5,835 bases of DNA, taken from IMG/VR virus record IMGVR_UViG_3300045988_014863, positions 1-5,835 of that record, one strand, 5' to 3'. A model generated the notes under the pieces. It made no database searches and was not told where the DNA came from. It saw nothing but the letters and a program-made list of their open reading frames with translations. The position numbers were made by a program, and so were the translations under genes. This DNA is from a virus. Each line of letters begins with the position of its first letter. The stretch's first letter is position 1. Shown in pieces: positions 1-5,835 of the stretch.

Positions 1-55
1 TGTATCCTTGCCGCCAGATTTCTTCTTTGTGTTCTTGATAATAGTGATCGCCGAG
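1..55. repeat. Terminal direct repeat, copy 1, identical to 5781-5835. This is a circular-genome assembly overlap, and the unit length is 5780 bp.
   Basis: Positions 1-55 and 5781-5835 are identical over 55 of 55 nt. The VP4 reading frame stays in phase across the join (5833-5835 corresponds to 53-55). Confidence 0.95.
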
Positions 56-802
56 GCCCGGCTTTAGACTCATGCATGCAAATGGTTTTGTTTGCCCTAA
101 CTCGTAGTATGCATTTGCTTTCTTTCCGTCTATTTCGTACATTTTTTTTGTAACGTATCCTGCAACATACCTATAGGTTTCTGGAACTGCTTGTGCTATC
201 TGTATTTGACCCATTCCCCATAGGTTTTCTAACCATTTACTGGTATAGTATCCGTTGTGGTGAATCTTGTATAGTTGTTCTAGGTCTGTTGGTCTCCATC
301 CGTATAGAATCATATGATAATGCGGTCTCGCTGTCTGTTCTCCGTACTCCCCCGCTACAAAATAGCGTAATTTGCCCCTGTAAGCCTTTCTGAGACGTTT
401 TAAGAACTTCTGAATATCTTCATACAGTAAAATTTGAACACTGCTAGGGAGCTTCTCTCCCGGTTTCCATGTGTACTGCACCTTTCGCATGATTTCACCT
501 GTTTTTACTATCATGCCTGGTATATGGTCATCATCATAAGTTAGCGTGATAAACCATACTTGTTCTTTCGGATAATCTCTTGCTTCTAGTTCTATTCGTG
601 TTGTCCAATCCTCTCGCTGCCTGATTCTGCATCCGATGCACTGTCCGCATGGTATCAACATGACTTTTGGATTATACATCAAATCTTCATATTTTAGCTG
701 TTTCCCGCTTAGCTCAGAAAAGCGGGCGAGTGAATAAACTCGTCCGCTCTGTTCTTTATTATCCGGGTTGTACAGCCTTATTAATGGCTTGTAACAACTC
801 AT
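1..802 (-). CDS. VP4: Replication initiation protein VP4 (HUH rolling-circle endonuclease, phiX174 A-like), N-terminal 267 codons. The gene continues across the circular junction into 5563-5780.
   Basis: Manual minus-strand translation starting at ATG 802..800 gives MSCYKPLIRLYNPDNKEQSGRVYSLARF...PCGQCIGCR...VWFITLTYDD (motif I)...ARPHYHMILYG (HUH motif II)...YRYVAGYVTKK (motif III, two Tyr three residues apart as in phiX A, YVAKYVNKK). SD AGGTGA sits 9 nt upstream. The ATG overlaps the VP2 stop as ATGA. The ORF track missed this gene because it runs off the window edge. Confidence 0.9.
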   Translation of the reverse strand, partial: MSCYKPLIRLYNPDNKEQSGRVYSLARFSELSGKQLKYEDLMYNPKVMLIPCGQCIGCRIRQREDWTTRIELEARDYPKEQVWFITLTYDDDHIPGMIVKTGEIMRKVQYTWKPGEKLPSSVQILLYEDIQKFLKRLRKAYRGKLRYFVAGEYGEQTARPHYHMILYGWRPTDLEQLYKIHHNGYYTSKWLENLWGMGQIQIAQAVPETYRYVAGYVTKKMYEIDGKKANAYYELGQTKPFACMSLKPGLGDHYYQEHKEEIWRQGY

Positions 803-1683
803 TTCAGATAATCACCTGGCTTTCTTTTTTCACCATAGTTTCCCGTTTTATTCTGCATAGGGTTTTCTGTTTTGTGCCCTACTTTGTTACTGCCGCTTGT
901 CTTTTTCCCTGTTTTATTCGTGATGTCCCCGATTGTTTTGCTTGTTTCGTTATCGATATTCGTTAGCGCTTTCATTAGGCCGTAAGGACTTAGATGTGTT
1001 TCACTTAGCATTTGATTCCAGCTTTGTGAAGCGTTATACCAATCCGATTTACTCCAGCTTTCGCTGCTGTACGAGTTTGGAACAAATCCGTTACTTCTGC
1101 TTACTCCTAGTGCGCTGCTGCTTGCTAGTCCCATGCTTGCTCCGCTGATTGTTCCCGCTGACCCTCCCGGTGTGCTTGCTCCGCCGTTTGCAAATGCCAG
1201 AATCGGGTTTAAACCTGCTTTTTTCATGTCTTCAACAGTTCTTTGATATGCTGTGCTGCTCATATACTCTTGGAACTGTCTGTTTGCTAGTGCTTCGGCG
1301 CTGTTGTAATTCATTGCGGCTGTGTTTTCGATGTGGTTATATATTCCTTGCATGATGGCCTGCATCGTGTTGTATCCCATCTGTTGCAGCATGCTTTTTT
1401 GGTTGTATTTTTGCTGTGCTACGCCCTCTGCGCTTTGGTATCCGTACGCTTGCTGTAAATATTTTGCGATTTGTTCATCATTTGTTCCGGATAGACTTCC
1501 GCTTGCGGACATTCCACCGCCTTGGCCTACGCTTCCGCCTCTGCTTTGCCCTGTTCCTTCATTTCCCCAACCGCCAAAAGTGCCGGTAACGTTTTTTACT
1601 GCGTTTGTTATGCTTCCTATGCTCGTTGCAACATTGCCGAGTATGCTTGTTCCTTTTATAATTGCTCCCCATGGAATTGCCAT
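799..1683 (-). CDS. VP2: VP2 minor capsid / DNA pilot protein (Gly/Ser/Thr/Gln-rich, 294 aa).
   Basis: The ORF lies immediately downstream of VP1 in the conserved VP1-VP2 position. Low-complexity G/S/T/Q/N composition (GGWGNEGTGQSRGGSVGQGGGMSASGSLSG) is characteristic of Microviridae VP2/H-like pilot proteins. Its stop overlaps the VP4 start. Confidence 0.8.
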   Translation of the reverse strand: MAIPWGAIIKGTSILGNVATSIGSITNAVKNVTGTFGGWGNEGTGQSRGGSVGQGGGMSASGSLSGTNDEQIAKYLQQAYGYQSAEGVAQQKYNQKSMLQQMGYNTMQAIMQGIYNHIENTAAMNYNSAEALANRQFQEYMSSTAYQRTVEDMKKAGLNPILAFANGGASTPGGSAGTISGASMGLASSSALGVSRSNGFVPNSYSSESWSKSDWYNASQSWNQMLSETHLSPYGLMKALTNIDNETSKTIGDITNKTGKKTSGSNKVGHKTENPMQNKTGNYGEKRKPGDYLK

Positions 1684-1691
1684 TTTAAAAT

Positions 1692-1712
1692 AGCCGGGTT
1701 TTTGGCCCGGCT
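1692..1712 (-). terminator. Intergenic VP1-VP2 hairpin AGCCGGG-ccaaaaa-CCCGGCT followed by ATTTTAAA. Candidate partial terminator/attenuator, or a structure that bridges the distant SD and the VP2 ATG.
   Basis: A 7-bp GC-rich inverted repeat (1692-1698 pairing with 1706-1712) is followed by a U-rich tract on the sense strand. The only SD, AGGAGG at 1718..1713, lies about 29 nt upstream of the VP2 ATG (1683) with the hairpin in between. Confidence 0.35.
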
Positions 1713-1723
1713 TCCTCCTTTCT

Positions 1724-3406
1724 TTACAGTTTTTCCAGTCCCGGCACGCTGTACAGCGGCATGCAACGAGTAGTATTGTTTATTACTCGGATTGCTCCAA
1801 AGAACTGCGGCTCGTTCTGCTCAATCAAAGTTCTTGCAATTTCGTCTTTTCCTTCGGTCATCCATTCTTGACTGAGTGTTGGCACCTCCTTGTAGTTGTC
1901 TGCATAGTGCCAGAAGTCCAGCGTTCCTTCTGCATTGCTTCGCATTTTACCACTTACCCGGTTCGGCTTCATTCGATAGTCGGCCCAGGCCTCCTGGTAG
2001 CCGAACGTATCATCATCTGTTGCCTTTCCTGTAACCATGATTTCTTTCTTCTTTACTGGCTGTTCGCCTATATTTGCGAACTGCGGAAAGTAGTAGTCCA
2101 GTCTGTCGCTACGGCTCCAGAAGCGTTCCAAGCCCTGCTGGTAGCTGTGATCGTGACGCACGCACATGACGCCGATAACAAAGCCGTGCTCCTCAAAGCT
2201 CTTTGTGAAGGAACTTTCGTTAATGGGTGTTACTGACATTGCACCGGTTTCACCGATAGGTGTATCATTTGCTGCCTGCTGTCCGCTGGTCTGCACGATT
2301 TGGTTGATGTTCACATGATAGCGTCCGCCGCCCAGATATTCCGGCACCTGAACGGTTTTGTCGCTGATGCTTACACCAAAAAGCGCACGTACCTGTTCAC
2401 GGTATCGACTGCCGCCGCGTGCCAGTGCTTCATAATAGTGCTGAACTGCAAAAGCTTGGCGCAACTGGTTGATTGTTGCTGCTTCAATTTCGCTGAGGTC
2501 GGTTGCAATGTATCTTGAGACAGAGACTCCGCCTGTCTGTTCTGTTGAGCCTAGTGCTATGATTGGGTCATTTGCAGTGTTCTGTGTTAGATATGCCGCC
2601 TTTCCACTCATCCAAATTAGAGTTGGGTTCGTTGGCCCGTTGATTCCTTCGTCGTCGTACATTTTTACAGGCGCATTTCCTGTTAGTGCGAGGGTCACTT
2701 CCGGTCCGCGCTGAGGATACGGCATACAGGATGAGAAGTAGTCGTGGAAGCGATTTACCGGCAGGCAGTATCCGCCGCAGATAGCATATTTGAGAATATT
2801 TTCTTTGGATACTTCGCTTTCATTCCCGCTTCCCGCTTCGTATTCTATGTCATCGTCTCCTGTACTGAAGACTGCCGGGTTCCCTACGTTTTGGTCTCTG
2901 AAAAATTCATTCCAGATTTTAATGTATGCTCTGACGGGGAGTGCGTTTATTTTTACGTTTCCCGTTTCTCCCTTTTTGATAATTTTTGCCGGGACTCCCA
3001 TATAGTCTAGAATGCTGTTTGTGTCTGGGTAGTCTCTTGCTGCTCCACCTTTATCGTTATCGATTATGATATTCGGCACTTTGTATGTTTTTGTCGGCAT
3101 CCACGGGTTATCGTCTGCTTCTCCCATGAACCGCTTGAAGTTATCCCATAGGATTCGGTTTGGGCAGTAGAAGTAGTAGAAGTCAATGTATGCATCGTCG
3201 AACACGGGATATTTCGGCGTAGTCATTCGGATGATTGCCGCTGTTTGCACGTTGAACGTATCGCCGGGAAGGACTTCGTCAACGTAGAACGGAATCAGTT
3301 TTCCTGCATCGAAAGTCGTGAGGATATTCTGGTCTCGATTGAACCGCGTTCTACTGACGTGTGTTTCCGGTACCTGGTTAAAGTGTCTTTCATTATTCCG
3401 GTTCAT
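1724..3406 (-). CDS. VP1: VP1 major capsid protein (Microviridae F-like, gokushovirus type), 560 aa.
   Basis: The N-terminus, HFNQVPETHVSRTRFNRDQNILTTFDAGKLIPFYVDEVLPGDTF, is the canonical gokushovirus VP1 signature (compare Chp2 ...TTFDAGYLIPIFCDEVLPGDTF). Size of 560 aa is typical. SD GAGGAAA sits 7 nt upstream. Confidence 0.95.
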   Translation of the reverse strand: MNRNNERHFNQVPETHVSRTRFNRDQNILTTFDAGKLIPFYVDEVLPGDTFNVQTAAIIRMTTPKYPVFDDAYIDFYYFYCPNRILWDNFKRFMGEADDNPWMPTKTYKVPNIIIDNDKGGAARDYPDTNSILDYMGVPAKIIKKGETGNVKINALPVRAYIKIWNEFFRDQNVGNPAVFSTGDDDIEYEAGSGNESEVSKENILKYAICGGYCLPVNRFHDYFSSCMPYPQRGPEVTLALTGNAPVKMYDDEGINGPTNPTLIWMSGKAAYLTQNTANDPIIALGSTEQTGGVSVSRYIATDLSEIEAATINQLRQAFAVQHYYEALARGGSRYREQVRALFGVSISDKTVQVPEYLGGGRYHVNINQIVQTSGQQAANDTPIGETGAMSVTPINESSFTKSFEEHGFVIGVMCVRHDHSYQQGLERFWSRSDRLDYYFPQFANIGEQPVKKKEIMVTGKATDDDTFGYQEAWADYRMKPNRVSGKMRSNAEGTLDFWHYADNYKEVPTLSQEWMTEGKDEIARTLIEQNEPQFFGAIRVINNTTRCMPLYSVPGLEKL

Positions 3407-3788
3407 TGTTTTCCTCGTCCTTTTTTTGTTTGTTTGCTGTCTCTTCCTGCATTTGTTTCAGTTCCATTGCTTTGGCCTGCGCCGTTGCCATCATTGCGTG
3501 GTATTCGTGGATGTTGGTAGGCCATTCGGTGATATCCATAATTTCGTCTGTTTTTGCGCTGTCTGCAAGACTTTTTGCAAATTCCGGGTCAAAGCTTGCT
3601 TTGCGGACAATGTTTTTGATGTCGCATTCGTCTGCATAGCTTTCAATTTCTGCTTGAGTGTCGATTGGCTCTGTTTCAATCAGTTTTTTGTTGCCTTTTT
3701 CGTCCTTCCCCCAGACGTACTGTTTGCGTAGTTTTTCGCCTGAATCCGTAAAGAAGGGCATTCGCTCTTCTTCATATCGCTTATTCAT
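3393..3788 (-). CDS. VP3: VP3-like internal scaffolding protein (131 aa, acidic).
   Basis: It lies immediately upstream of VP1, overlapping it by 14 nt. It is acidic with a Glu-rich C-terminus. It contains an ECDIKNI motif resembling the ECDINNI motif I recall in gokushovirus VP3 proteins. SD GGGAGGG sits 8 nt upstream. Confidence 0.6.
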   Translation of the reverse strand: MNKRYEEERMPFFTDSGEKLRKQYVWGKDEKGNKKLIETEPIDTQAEIESYADECDIKNIVRKASFDPEFAKSLADSAKTDEIMDITEWPTNIHEYHAMMATAQAKAMELKQMQEETANKQKKDEENNEPE

Positions 3789-4020
3789 GCGGTTTTCCCT
3801 CCCATGCTTTATCGTTCATGTTCTGGAACTCGCCGGTTTCATCTTCAAACATTGCCAGTTTGTAACCCACGTAATCGGCCGGAGACTGGCCGATGAACGT
3901 TTTTTCGTCTTTTGCCATTACGTTGCACATCCTCGCAAACGTTTCGTTGTTTTTGCTTTCGCCTACCCATGCGTAGCACTTCGCCACTTTATCGTAGATA
4001 CCATAGTAACTGTGAATCAT
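3781..4020 (-). CDS. Hypothetical small protein, 79 aa (possible VP5 analogue).
   Basis: Strong SD AAAGGAG 7 nt upstream of the ATG. The stop overlaps the VP3 start by 8 nt. No TM segment is apparent. Confidence 0.55.
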   Translation of the reverse strand: MIHSYYGIYDKVAKCYAWVGESKNNETFARMCNVMAKDEKTFIGQSPADYVGYKLAMFEDETGEFQNMNDKAWEGKPHE

Positions 4021-4140
4021 GTTTTTCTCCTTTACAGTCTGATGCCGCCCCTCATGGGTTTCTGGCTGAGATTAATACTCTTCGTTTTGCGTGCCGTCAC
4101 GTTGAACATTCGTTTGTCAGTTCGTCTCGGCATTCTCTGC

Positions 4141-4362
4141 CTATGCTTCATTGTTGTACTCCCTTCGGATTAGTTCCAATTGGATGTCGTTTGCCCATGC
4201 TTTCATTATCCAGATTCGGTCAATGATTTTTTTTGCGTCTTCTAAGTTGGATACTTTTTTAATCATTTTGTATCCAGCTTCAATTTCTTTGTATAACTTG
4301 TCTGCTTCGATTCGTAGGTCTTTTTCGGTCTGGTCTCTCACGTTCCATGTCTTGTGCAGCAT
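4141..4362 (-). CDS. Hypothetical small protein, 73 aa (charged, predicted helical).
   Basis: SD AAGGAG lies 8-9 nt upstream of the ATG. Composition is coding-like and Lys/Glu/Ile-rich. It sits in the sense-strand gene array. Confidence 0.55.
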   Translation of the reverse strand: MLHKTWNVRDQTEKDLRIEADKLYKEIEAGYKMIKKVSNLEDAKKIIDRIWIMKAWANDIQLELIRREYNNEA

Positions 4363-4367
4363 TGTCT

Positions 4368-4472
4368 TTACTCCTTTTCCTTCAGAATGTGGTAAATCTG
4401 GTCCAGCTTTTCCAGCACGGTTTTGATCAGCTGGATTGCTTCTCGCAGATCCTTGACTTTGATTAATGCCAT
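4368..4472 (-). CDS. Candidate unannotated 34-aa ORF (MALIKVKDLREAIQLIKTVLEKLDQIYHILKEKE). It is below the ORF-track size cut-off.
   Basis: ATG at 4472..4470 lies 3 nt after the peptidase stop. SD-like AGGGGG sits about 8 nt upstream. The amphipathic, helix-like sequence fills the gap between the peptidase and 73-aa genes exactly and ends 5 nt before the next ATG. Confidence 0.3.
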   Translation of the reverse strand: MALIKVKDLREAIQLIKTVLEKLDQIYHILKEKE

Positions 4473-4475
4473 AGG

Positions 4476-4862
4476 TTACACCCCCTTTCTGTATCGCTTT
4501 TCACGCACATCAACGTGTGTGAAGTTTGTGTATTTGATTACGCCGCCTTGCTCCATGATTTCATCTGCGTACTTTGCGACTTCTTTGCTGCTGTGTCCTT
4601 TTACTACGATATCCGCCGCCATTCCTTTGCAGTGGTACGAGTTTGGCGCTCCGCCTGCTTTTGCATTCCAGCTTGGCGTGCGGTATCCGCTGTTGATGAT
4701 GACTGGTGCGTTGAAGTGGTTTCGGATTTTTTCCAGTATTTCAATCAGTTCTAAGCAGTACAGGAATTCTTTTGTTCCGTCTTTGCATTTGAATTCTTTT
4801 CCTGTAAAATGCTCTGCCCCTATAAGCTTTCCTTCGTATTCGTCAGCGTAAATCGATCTCAT
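4476..4862 (-). CDS. Peptidase M15 family (VanY / D-Ala-D-Ala carboxypeptidase-like, Peptidase_M15_3/4-type) peptidoglycan hydrolase, the putative lysis enzyme; 128 aa.
   Basis: The zinc-peptidase signature SxHxxGxAxD is present as SYHCKGMAADIV, with SGYRTP upstream and the HxD element (FTHVDV) downstream. Size is about 130 aa. SD AAAGGAAG sits 7 nt upstream. Confidence 0.85.
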   Translation of the reverse strand: MRSIYADEYEGKLIGAEHFTGKEFKCKDGTKEFLYCLELIEILEKIRNHFNAPVIINSGYRTPSWNAKAGGAPNSYHCKGMAADIVVKGHSSKEVAKYADEIMEQGGVIKYTNFTHVDVREKRYRKGV

Positions 4863-4908
4863 GGTGGCTTCCTTTCTGTCTTTGTTATATCATGGCGTTG
4901 TTTTCTTG

Positions 4909-5094
4909 TCAATGCCATATAAGTCTTTTTTCGTTTTCAAGTTGGTTAACTCTTTGTCTGGATAGCTGGCCGCTTCTGTTTTCCCAACATCCTTTCTTCT
5001 TGTTGTAAGTGTATGGATACAGTGGACGCTTGCCAATTCTCGGATTGTAGCATATTAATTTTTTGTTTTCGGTGTATTCGTAGTCGCTTCTCAT
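4909..5094 (-). CDS. Small basic protein, 61 aa (MRSDYEYTENKKLICYNPRIGKRPLYPYTYNKKKGCWENRSGQLSRQRVNQLENEKRLIWH). Putative DNA-binding/packaging protein (J/VP8-like).
   Basis: The true start is the internal ATG at 5094..5092, preceded by SD AAAGGAG (9 nt spacer) and the consensus promoter. The track ORF start at 5148 lies inside the -35 box. Net charge is about +8. Confidence 0.55.
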   Translation of the reverse strand: MRSDYEYTENKKLICYNPRIGKRPLYPYTYNKKKGCWENRSGQLSRQRVNQLENEKRLIWH

Positions 5095-5119
5095 GTTGTT
5101 TATCTCCTTTTCTGGTTTT

Positions 5120-5148
5120 ATTATAACACTATTCTTTACCTTTGTCAA
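5120..5148 (-). promoter_or_regulatory. Near-consensus sigma70 promoter on the sense (minus) strand: -35 TTGACA (5148..5143), 17-bp spacer, extended -10 TGtTATAAT (5128..5120), with an A-rich UP-like tract upstream (5172..5149).
   Basis: Plus-strand tgtcaa at 5143-5148 and attata at 5120-5125 are separated by exactly 17 nt. TG lies 1 nt upstream of the -10. The sense strand reads GGAAAAGTTTCAAAAAAGAC immediately upstream of the -35. An SD and ATG follow about 12 nt after the predicted TSS. Confidence 0.6.
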
Positions 5149-5174
5149 GTCTTTTTTGAAACTTTTCCTAAATG

Positions 5175-5215
5175 GTCATGCGGTCGGCGCTGGTGCGCCG
5201 AATGAAAAGCATGAC
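5175..5215. repeat. Bipartite imperfect hairpin GTCATGC-ggt-CGGCGC-tggt-GCGCCG-aatgaaaa-GCATGAC, upstream of the promoter.
   Basis: Outer 7-bp and inner 6-bp inverted repeats were verified by reverse complementing. It lies about 26 nt upstream of the -35 box on the sense strand. Confidence 0.4.
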
Positions 5216-5256
5216 GTAACTTTCGGCTTTCGCTCGCCGGACGGCCTTTATTAGTT

Positions 5257-5418
5257 TTCAACATTTTCAACATAGTTTTCAACATTTCAACATTGTTAAA
5301 CTTTAGCACAACAGAGTGTTTCAACATTTCAACAAGTTTTCAACAAAGTTTTCAACATTGTTTTTTGTTTGTTTTTAACGCTCTAACGTTTTAAAATTAT
5401 ACTTTTCAACTTTTCAAC
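5257..5418. repeat. Iteron array: ten direct copies of TTTCAACA(T) in three clusters (4+4+2), with 8-12 bp phasing inside each cluster.
   Basis: TTCAAC cores sit at 5257, 5266, 5278, 5286, 5320, 5328, 5339, 5351, 5405 and 5413, all in the same orientation. This is a non-coding AT-rich region between the VP4 terminator and the promoter. Confidence 0.7.
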
Positions 5419-5455
5419 ATACCCTACTACTACGACTACAACAAGTTATATTATA

Positions 5456-5506
5456 ATACGTGCGCACGCGTGCGCGTGTAGTTTTCGCGTGCACGTGTGT
5501 GCGCGA
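5456..5506. repeat. Two GC-rich alternating purine-pyrimidine palindromic tracts. The first spans 5456-5480 and contains the perfect 14-bp palindrome GCGCACGCGTGCGC at 5462-5475. The second spans 5486-5506 and contains the palindrome CGTGCACG. They are flanked by an AT-rich tract (5441-5457).
   Basis: Perfect R-Y alternation runs over 25 nt and over 21 nt. The palindromes were verified by reverse complement. The two tracts are also partly complementary to each other. They are embedded in otherwise AT-rich DNA. Confidence 0.6.
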
Positions 5507-5518
5507 TTAGATTAATAA

Positions 5519-5550
5519 AGCCCAGTACTCTACTTGATAGGTACTGGGCT
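5519..5550 (-). terminator. Hairpin AGCCCAGTAC-(12-nt loop)-GTACTGGGCT followed by TTTATTAAT on the sense strand, 13 nt after the VP4 stop. Putative rho-independent terminator ending the genome-long transcription unit.
   Basis: A 10-bp perfect inverted repeat (5519-5528 pairing with 5541-5550). A U-rich tail (revcomp of 5509-5518) lies immediately 3' on the sense strand. Confidence 0.45.
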
Positions 5551-5562
5551 AGGTGACACCAA

Positions 5563-5835
5563 CTATAAAATACCACGCTTTTTCGTTTGTTTTTTGGTGA
5601 CACGTTCTTTTGTCTCTAGGACTGTCTTGTAGTCCTGTGCTTCTAGCTGTAGACGCTTCTGCTCTATGGCGTTTTTCTGTCTGTTTTGCTTAATTCTCCA
5701 CAATCTTTGTGGGTTTTCCGCTTCCATCTGCTTTTCGTAGTATCTTGGAATCTGCGCTTGTTTTCCGTTTGTGCATTGAATGTATCCTTGCCGCCAGATT
5801 TCTTCTTTGTGTTCTTGATAATAGTGATCGCCGAG
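5563..5835 (-). CDS. VP4: VP4 replication initiator, C-terminal part (72 codons plus stop; 5781-5835 duplicates 1-55). The full protein is 339 aa.
   Basis: The frame is continuous with 1..802 across the junction. The tail reads ...QCTNGKQAQIPRYYEKQMEAENPQRLWRIKQNRQKNAIEQKRLQLEAQDYKTVLETKERVTKKQTKKRGIL and ends at TAG (5565..5563). This Lys/Arg/Gln-rich tail is typical of gokushovirus VP4 C-termini. Confidence 0.85.
   Translation of the reverse strand, partial: LGDHYYQEHKEEIWRQGYIQCTNGKQAQIPRYYEKQMEAENPQRLWRIKQNRQKNAIEQKRLQLEAQDYKTVLETKERVTKKQTKKRGIL
5781..5835. repeat. Terminal direct repeat, copy 2 (a duplicate of 1-55 from linearising a circle).
   Basis: Exact 55-nt identity with the window start. 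Confidence 0.95.

Follow-up and report, generated by a model that had tools for sequence, protein, structure and literature searches.

The subject of this work is an array of short direct repeats, together with the DNA beside it, in positions 1 to 5,835 of the IMG/VR virus record IMGVR_UViG_3300045988_014863. This whole stretch of 5,835 nt is called the window. Its two ends (1-55 and 5781-5835) are identical, a terminal overlap of 55 nt, and the genome is thus a complete circle of 5,780 nt. All the genes lie on the minus strand (Table 1). The genome belongs to the Gokushovirinae (Microviridae). It encodes an F-type capsid protein, a Chp2-type scaffold protein, VP5, and an HUH Rep; the assignment required these four proteins on a circle of about 4.5-6 kb. 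The VP4 gene (339 amino acids) spans the junction of the circle, and its stop codon lies at 5563. Reading naively through the junction produces a false, frameshifted VP4 C-terminus.

An earlier reading, made from the sequence only (the sequence-only reading), had placed the array in the only large non-coding region. This is correct. The largest gap (5095-5562) measures 468 nt, against 120 nt for the second largest. On the coding strand, the region presents in order the VP4 stop, a strong hairpin, a GC-rich block, the module of boxes and trios considered here, a GC hairpin, a promoter, a ribosome-binding site, and the first gene.

Table 1. Positions and strands of the features of the window (position 1 is its first nucleotide).
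Feature	Position	Strand	Remarks
Distal DnaA-box cluster 1	5255-5292	+	four head-to-tail boxes; TTTCAACA starts 5256, 5265, 5277, 5285
Distal DnaA-box cluster 2	5319-5357	+	four head-to-tail boxes; starts 5319, 5327, 5338, 5350
AT-rich spacer, distal clusters to proximal boxes	5358-5402		from sequence and conservation profile
Proximal tandem DnaA boxes	5403-5419	+	TTTTCAACT (5403-5411) and TTTTCAACA (5411-5419), 8-nt offset
Spacer TACC, 4 nt	5420-5423		proximal box to trios; upstream box to trios, 12 nt
DnaA-trio block	5424-5444	-	plus strand CTA CTA CTA CGA CTA CAA CAA
AT-rich stretch GTTATATTATAATA, candidate DNA-unwinding element	5445-5458		13/14 A/T
GC-rich alternating purine-pyrimidine block	5459-5510		two imperfect 26-nt repeats; flanks module, membership uncertain
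Hairpin, 10-bp stem	5519-5550	-	directly after VP4 stop (5563); single-stranded fold z -4.78
GC-rich hairpin, conserved, candidate single-strand signal	5175-5215	-	between promoter and array; fold z -2.15
Sigma-70-type promoter	5120-5148	-	consensus TTGACA-17-TATAAT plus TG (extended -10); 12/12 consensus matches
61-amino-acid protein	5094-4909	-	first gene after promoter
M15 peptidase	4476-4862	-	Pfam Peptidase_M15_3, E 5e-24
73-amino-acid protein		-	
VP5		-	Pfam Phage_ORF5
Scaffold protein, Chp2-type		-	Pfam Chlamy_scaf
VP1, F-type capsid protein		-	Pfam Phage_F, E 1e-134
VP2-like protein, 294 amino acids		-	
VP4, HUH initiator	across junction	-	Pfam REP_ORF2-G2P

The octamer TTTCAACA has nine exact copies. 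All are on the plus strand and all fall in 5256-5419 (5255-5419 when the units are taken as 9-mers). Chance expectation, counted over the whole window, is 0.28 copies, and none of 200 dinucleotide-preserving shuffles reached nine. A tenth unit at 5404-5411 is the variant TTTCAACT. The sequence-only reading reported ten same-orientation copies in a 162-bp span (5257-5418). Their common strand and their location stand, with the count corrected to nine exact copies plus one variant and the span extended by one base at each end. The three clusters are also present (4, 4, and 2 units). Start-to-start spacings are 9, 12, and 8 nt in the first cluster, 34 nt to the second, 8, 11, and 12 nt within it, 54 nt to the third, and 8 nt within the last. 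The spacing of one helical turn claimed for them is only approximate, since units 8 nt apart abut each other.

The units were said to match the relaxed DnaA-box consensus TTWTNCACA at 8 of 9 positions. Six of them do (5255, 5264, 5276, 5337, 5349, and 5411). The other four match at 7 of 9 positions and none matches in full. The spacer between clusters 1 and 2 contains TTTAGCACA (5302-5310), which also matches at 8 of 9 and may be an eleventh, weak box. About 20 nt upstream of 5302, box slot 4 of cluster 1 is occupied by TGTTGCACA or AGTTGCACA in many relatives. The AT-rich spacer includes a semi-conserved ACG-N5-AACGTT at 5375-5388, which may be a site for another factor.

The sequence-only reading described a cluster of binding sites. 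It overlooked a DnaA-trio block and an AT-rich element at 5420-5458, and because of these the locus looks like an origin module rather than a simple cluster. More precisely, 5403-5458 reads TTTTCAAC, then TTTTCAACA, TACC, the trio block, and GTTATATTATAATA. The trios (5'-TAG-3' repeats, that is 3'-GAT-5') are on the minus strand, which is the coding strand. Three perfect GAT trios occupy 5424-5432; CGA, CTA, and CAA CAA follow on the plus strand. The motif (CTA)3 occurs once in the genome, at this block, and the composite pattern of box, spacer, and (CTA)3 arose in 1 of 2000 shuffles.

In the basal unwinding system (BUS) that bacterial origins use, one DnaA box or, in many cases, a tandem pair is separated by a spacer of at most 16 bp from at least three DnaA-trios, 3'-GAT-5' being the commonest, with an AT-rich unwinding element (PMC8287927; PMC7561715). 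The spacer peaks at 10-13 bp from the better-conserved box (PMC8287927). Both boxes of the proximal pair lie within the 16 bp, at 4 and 12 nt from the trios, and the 12 nt of the upstream box fall inside the 10-13 bp peak. Likewise, at least three consecutive trios (3'-NAN-5', typically 3'-GAT-5') are found on one strand. The AT-rich stretch is short and GC-rich DNA comes next; some relatives have 30-34 nt of AT-rich DNA at this place.

We then considered conservation. Nucleotide identity to GenBank gokushoviruses from pig, human, and monkey faeces is 72-76% over the genome, against about 80-85% in the non-coding region for many gut gokushoviruses. The public records of the GenBank relatives hold no annotation in this region. 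A pattern scan of IMG/VR gave dozens of genomes of 4-6 kb with 6-9 same-strand copies and the same three-cluster layout. To avoid ascertainment bias, 80 relatives were chosen by VP1 similarity alone (68-83% amino acid identity). Four or more same-strand copies of TTTCAACA are present in 68 of the 80, six or more boxes of A or C type in 63, and the trio block in 70. The relatives without array or trio are mostly partial contigs.

Seventy distinct modules were aligned with the window as reference. Box columns are 0.885 identical to the window, and non-box columns inside the array 0.62 (Mann-Whitney p = 1.6e-13). The trio and unwinding-element columns (5424-5451) reach a mean identity of 0.94, and 5445-5458, together with 5436-5444, is nearly invariant. 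Cluster 2 is the best conserved cluster, with most of its box columns at 0.9-1.0. These values show strong purifying conservation of boxes, trios, and AT-rich core. They answer the search in related microviruses that the sequence-only reading had recommended, and they contradict the low-complexity AT-rich drift that it had named as the alternative outcome.

The substitutions in the box slots are informative too. The third box of cluster 2 is a perfect TTATCCACA in four relatives (L033, L040, L041, and L057). Homologous slots across the 70 relatives, those of cluster 1 included, have TTTTCCACA among their variants, and some lineages present an additional inverted TTTGTGGAAAA. By sequence, these three variants are canonical DnaA boxes. 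The first proximal box is TTTTCAACT in 46 of the 70 relatives. The second is TTTTCCACA in 32 of the 70 and otherwise often another TTTTCCAC variant; the form of the window accounts for about 13%.

Four of the genomes with boxes (L283, L286, L288, and L309) have the whole module turned round with respect to their genes, and the flanking GC-rich hairpins keep their orientation. As single-stranded DNA, the array has no structure (fold z -0.68). These two observations point to an element that acts on duplex DNA, and the inversion also implies no fixed relation to the nearby promoter. The inverted unit measures about 220 nt and comprises boxes, trios, and AT-rich DNA (L283, 690-1010); the GC-rich blocks on its two sides do not move with it. 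The flip may result from recombination between inverted repeats rich in GC. A nick site inside the module would be compatible with the inversion, as an antisense-packaging microvirus should be viable in principle.

The box of the phage was also looked for in bacterial chromosomes (one genome per species, three tandem units), and at least 120 loci were obtained. Among the matches listed, about 38 loci are of Oscillospiraceae/Ruminococcaceae/Ruminococcus and 8 of unclassified Clostridia, as counted from titles. In the densest arrays of this list, both TTTCAACA and TTTCCACA occur, and the boxes number 14-21 per 400 nt. In six Ruminococcus/Oscillospiraceae genomes they come directly after a gene of 460-500 amino acids. 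This gene is dnaA (Pfam Bac_DnaA and Bac_DnaA_C, E 1e-63 to 1e-69). Where the locus extends far enough (L210, L182, L129, and L144), a gene of 370-400 amino acids follows the array, and it is dnaN (three DNA_pol3_beta domains). The dnaA-dnaN interval is the position of the chromosomal origin in Firmicutes (PMC7561715).

Four complete dnaA-dnaN spacers contain 70 copies of TTTCAACA versus 13 of TTTCCACA. Judged from these counts, TTTCAACA is the main origin box of Ruminococcus/Oscillospiraceae and not a relaxed box. The term "relaxed" used by the sequence-only reading is therefore dropped: the units are identical to the prevailing box type in the chromosomal origins of one bacterial group. A DnaA box, a 9-mer to which domain IV of DnaA binds, may be defined by the consensus or by the oriC box of a lineage, and the units of the window qualify by identity with the latter.

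The ends of these origins resemble the module of the phage. L210 and L129 finish in TTTCAACAgTTTCAACAccccCTACTACTACTACTA and then AT-rich DNA. A Ruminococcus oriC (L134) reads TTTCAACATACCCTACTACTAC, with 22 nt identical to window 5412-5433; its end, TTTTCCACAgTTTCAACAtaccCTACTACTACTACTA, has the same TACC spacer. At the proximal-box position, the candidate-host origins present TTTCAACAgTTTCAACA or TTTTCCACAgTTTCAACA, and at the trio position (CTA)4-5, with variable AT-rich DNA beyond. Recent wholesale capture from a host origin was considered and rejected. A blastn comparison of the module with the bacterial loci returned only matches of 23-41 nt made of boxes.

The DnaA proteins of these bacteria differ in the recognition helix. 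Six of them (L210, L182, L129, L144, L134, and L171) share RDHSTIVY(A/S), versus RDHTTVIHA in B. subtilis. The changed helix thus goes with the changed box (TTTCAACA rather than TTATCCACA). The two substituted positions presumably correspond to T435 and H439 of E. coli DnaA, two residues that contact bases. On the basis of box type and gut origin, Ruminococcus/Oscillospiraceae are the probable hosts of the phage. Dense TTTCAACA arrays were also observed in non-gut bacteria of other phyla (L154, L195, L230 (Mesoaciditoga), L188 (Athalassotoga), L160, L128 (Anaerolineae)), and L154 has the box-spacer-(CTA)n arrangement. The A-type box is thus not confined to Oscillospirales.

Taken together, the array is probably the DnaA-box field of an oriC-like module (5255-5458) in a gut gokushovirus. 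The predicted module consists of two distal clusters of four boxes, a proximal tandem pair, a 4-nt spacer, a DnaA-trio block, and a short AT-rich element. Compared element by element, this is the layout of the bacterial BUS, built with the TTTTCAACA box variant dominant in Ruminococcus/Oscillospiraceae origins. The sequence-only reading had raised the recruitment of host DnaA as a possibility. Four independent comparative lines now support it: the interchange of slots with TTTTCCACA/TTATCCACA, the dominant box of the dnaA-dnaN interval, the box-spacer-trio-AT layout, and the variant recognition helix shared by the bacteria. We consider the binding of host DnaA to the boxes very likely. For unwinding or origin activity of the module, the balance tips only slightly in favor.

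The proposed mechanism would be as follows. Once the genome is in its double-stranded replicative form, host DnaA-ATP would occupy the ten boxes. A DnaA oligomer would be nucleated on the trio strand by the proximal pair, and the AT-rich stretch would then melt. The host helicase-loading machinery could thereby gain access to the opened duplex. Among the downstream uses, theta-type amplification or maintenance of the replicative form, driven by DnaA, is ranked first, but only as a tentative proposal.

The second use in rank, rather unlikely, is that DnaA helps to expose a site for nicking by VP4, either within the melted region or beside it. It is suggested by CTACAACAAGTTATAT (5436-5458), which is nearly invariant in phages and varies in host DNA. 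More precisely, this sequence is almost invariant in the 70 relatives, and the equivalent DNA after the trios in candidate-host origins is variable. This contrast suggests a second, phage-specific constraint, such as recognition by VP4. The region 5438-5458 loosely resembles the phiX174 origin, CAACTTGATATTAATAAC.

Several explanations compete with the oriC-like module. In the first, the module has no origin activity and serves as a DnaA sponge or sensor. Present in many copies, the replicative form would titrate host DnaA, like datA or the DnaA-box clusters of B. subtilis, and so block or delay host initiation; in the sensor version, DnaA occupancy would tune the nearby phage promoter to the growth state of the host. 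The ten host-type boxes of the window fit titration. So do the viral contigs L064, L093, and L045, where dense arrays of the same box lie away from recognisable replication genes. The consensus promoter, about 110 nt from cluster 1, would serve a sensor. DnaA-box clusters outside oriC are reported to regulate initiation (PMC3245932). Nevertheless, titration does not explain why trio block and AT-rich core are nearly invariant and stand at an origin-like spacing after the tandem pair. The sensor version meets a further difficulty, because neither distance nor orientation to the promoter is kept and four genomes have the module inverted. We regard this explanation as unlikely, although it is the best of the competitors.

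The sites could belong instead to another origin-binding host protein, either a Spo0A-like regulator or some other Oscillospiraceae factor. The minus-strand TGTTGAA is one base away from the 0A box, TGTCGAA. However, the variants in relatives and hosts move towards TGTGGAAAA/TGTGGATAA and never towards TGTCGAA. In addition, TTTCAACA and TTTCCACA hold the BUS-box position before the trios in the candidate hosts. The 0A boxes themselves were searched for. TGNCGAA is absent from the minus strand genome-wide, and the plus-strand form TTCGNCA is found only at 3072, 3275, 3980, and 4839, all inside genes. A host factor other than DnaA thus has a small probability.

The sequence-only reading had offered VP4 or a small basic protein as an alternative binder, for replication control, packaging, or autoregulation. 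The array does adjoin the end of the VP4 gene and the promoter, and direct repeats beside HUH-Rep origins are common in other single-stranded DNA replicons. Nevertheless, the same 8-mer arrays are present in dnaA-dnaN origins and in tailed-phage contigs that encode no VP1 or VP4. In relatives, canonical DnaA boxes take the place of units; the unit itself stays the same across VP1-diverged lineages, and classical gokushoviruses with a homologous VP4 have no such array. Iterons of plasmid type would be specific to their Rep and change with it. The present unit occurs in replicons without VP4, chromosomes and tailed phages among them, and does not change between lineages, so the term "iteron" in the plasmid sense is not retained. 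A phage protein as binder is very improbable.

Equally improbable is a signal on the packaged single strand (complementary-strand origin, primosome assembly site, or packaging signal): microviruses need a host-recognised signal to pass from single-stranded DNA to the replicative form, the region is the only sizeable non-coding DNA, and a distant microvirus (L391) bears a perfect DnaA box in a strong hairpin stem, but here the single strand is unstructured, no duplex box can form because the boxes all point the same way, the module occurs in either direction with respect to the genes, and the flanking hairpins are better candidates.

Some observations weigh against the oriC-like module itself. 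The whole case for it is comparative. The phage keeps a normal HUH initiator (VP4), and rolling-circle replication needs no DnaA in principle; to our knowledge, no characterised microvirus needs DnaA. With only about 14 nt before the GC-rich block begins, the AT-rich element would make a short unwinding element, and the window contains only three consecutive perfect trios. The box cluster and (CTA)3 are missing in phiMH2K, SpV4, and Chp2 (4.4-4.6 kb). Since these classical gokushoviruses lack it, the module is an accessory of this larger-genome gut clade. The same arrays stand between structural genes in tailed-phage contigs, and this fits a DnaA sponge as well as an origin. Finally, the host assignment derives only from the box type and the gut origin, and no prophage, VP1, or VP4 match appeared among the bacterial loci listed (at least 120).

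Dense arrays of the same box were observed in four viral contigs that are not microviruses (L037, 1770-1970; L064, 7180-7340; L093, 10890-11120; L045, 1180-2180). They hold 9-13 copies, and L045 has 34 in 1 kb. Pfam matches make L037 and L064 siphovirus-like, and none were obtained for L045 and L093. The L064 array lies between portal and Mu-F-like genes. L037 presents a box, a C-rich spacer, CTACTAC, and AT-rich DNA. The presence of these arrays in unrelated tailed-phage contigs suggests that exploitation of DnaA by the phages of these hosts is common. Among PLSDB plasmids, only short, chance-like matches were found, in Acinetobacter.

A scan of IMG/VR with TTATCCACA-N(2-14)-CTACTACTA gave 79 contigs, and L391 is the single microvirus among them. 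Its VP1 is 38% identical to that of the window. Just upstream of VP1, at 566-605, it has a hairpin with a 16-bp stem (z -5.78). A perfect DnaA box is part of this stem, TTATCCACAGGGC...GCCCTGTGGGTAA, and the loop holds CTACTACTA. The structure resembles plasmid hairpins in which a DnaA box serves for single-strand initiation. L391 may exploit DnaA by another route.

The other features of the region are summarized here. The promoter, read from 5148 to 5120, drives the block of genes that starts with the ribosome-binding site and ATG at 5094. The M15 peptidase is probably the lysis enzyme of the phage, and no such gene is annotated in the classical gokushoviruses examined. An exact copy of VP1 was found on one metagenome scaffold. 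The hairpin at 5175-5215 has similar sequence in many relatives and is a candidate complementary-strand origin. The GC-rich block at 5459-5510 folds no better than shuffles (z -0.20), and its composition is prone to Z-DNA. Most relatives have such a block, variable in sequence; some lineages have none beside the AT-rich core. A dif/XerCD site beside it was considered and not accepted: the match by eye to dif is weak, and some lineages have no GC block at this place.

In the hairpin at 5519-5550, the stems differ across lineages and the loop core CTTGATAG (plus strand) is kept. It may be a terminator, the nick-site hairpin of VP4, or both. Its loop resembles the phiX174 cleavage context, AACTTG/ATA, but on the non-coding strand. 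Two further candidates were rejected. An Rfam scan of 5000-5700 gave one chance miRNA match, far under threshold. An open reading frame of 60 amino acids at 5145-5327 has no Pfam match, and the array has no conserved reading frame, because distances between clusters differ by 10, 19, or 29 nt between lineages, none of them a multiple of three.

What would such a module mean? In the gut virome of mammals, microviruses count among the members with the highest abundance and persistence, yet almost none has a known host. A conserved module of this kind would add a second layer, dependent on the host initiator, to their replication or persistence. One can go further, though doubtfully, and propose dual replication in a large clade of gut gokushoviruses: rolling circle by VP4 and an oriC-type minichromosome fired by host DnaA. 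Such a system would allow plasmid-like persistence coupled to the cell cycle (non-integrative lysogeny or a carrier state) in Ruminococcus/Oscillospiraceae. The BUS would then have been captured or mimicked, and the box type would be a sequence-encoded host label for uncultivated microviruses. Apart from this proposal, the module gives a testable handle for host assignment: the TTTCAACA-type origin and the DnaA helix RDHSTIVY point to Ruminococcus/Oscillospiraceae. The module would also offer a natural minimal origin of about 200 bp for gut anaerobes without genetic tools.

Rolling-circle replication that needs no DnaA has its textbook example in the microviruses. The phiX174-type origin is a 30-nt site recognised and cleaved by gpA, without repeats and with no known involvement of DnaA. 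The phage of the window belongs to the same virus family and has an initiator of the same class (VP4, Pfam REP_ORF2-G2P). We see only a loose likeness to the phiX174 origin, at 5438-5458 and in the loop at 5529-5540, both on the plus (non-coding) strand. At 5438-5458, this likeness falls on the non-coding strand in most genomes.

The origins of P1 (oriR), pSC101, F, RK2, and R6K have auxiliary DnaA boxes, and their own Rep binds iterons of 17-22 bp. They resemble the module in that a mobile replicon borrows host DnaA through boxes at its origin. They differ from it in having one to few boxes and no described trio block; the phage, for its part, has an HUH nickase as initiator and no repeats other than the boxes. 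The E. coli datA locus and the B. subtilis DnaA-box clusters are similar in another way, as boxes outside oriC that bind many DnaA molecules. We know of no trio and unwinding element in DnaA-titrating loci of the datA type. Mollicute oriC plasmids are small replicons driven by origin boxes. They are laboratory constructs or chromosomal sites and not viral genomes, unlike the window. For this group, TT(T/A)TCAACA was proposed as the DnaA-box consensus, and the same paper doubts that consensus; the window 9-mer TTTTCAACA is identical to it (PMC3322544).

Another close likeness is with boxes 6/7 and the DnaA-trios of B. subtilis oriC and with C. difficile oriC2. They share the tandem pair, the short spacer, the 3'-GAT-5' repeats, the AT-rich DNA, and the upstream clusters. 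The C. difficile trio sequence 5'-CACCTACTACTATTACTACTATGA (PMC7561715) resembles window 5421-5444. Unlike a chromosomal BUS, the module resides on a 5.8-kb rolling-circle single-stranded DNA phage without dnaA or dnaN. It is also compact (about 200 bp), with boxes in one direction, three consecutive perfect trios, and an AT-rich stretch of about 14 nt. In the literature searched, no paper connects Microviridae or gokushoviruses to DnaA boxes, to oriC, or to DnaA-trios. Chromosomes are well known to have DnaA boxes, trios, and unwinding elements, and several plasmid and phage origins to have auxiliary DnaA boxes. The novelty here would be a predicted complete origin-unwinding module of host type resident in a rolling-circle single-stranded DNA phage.

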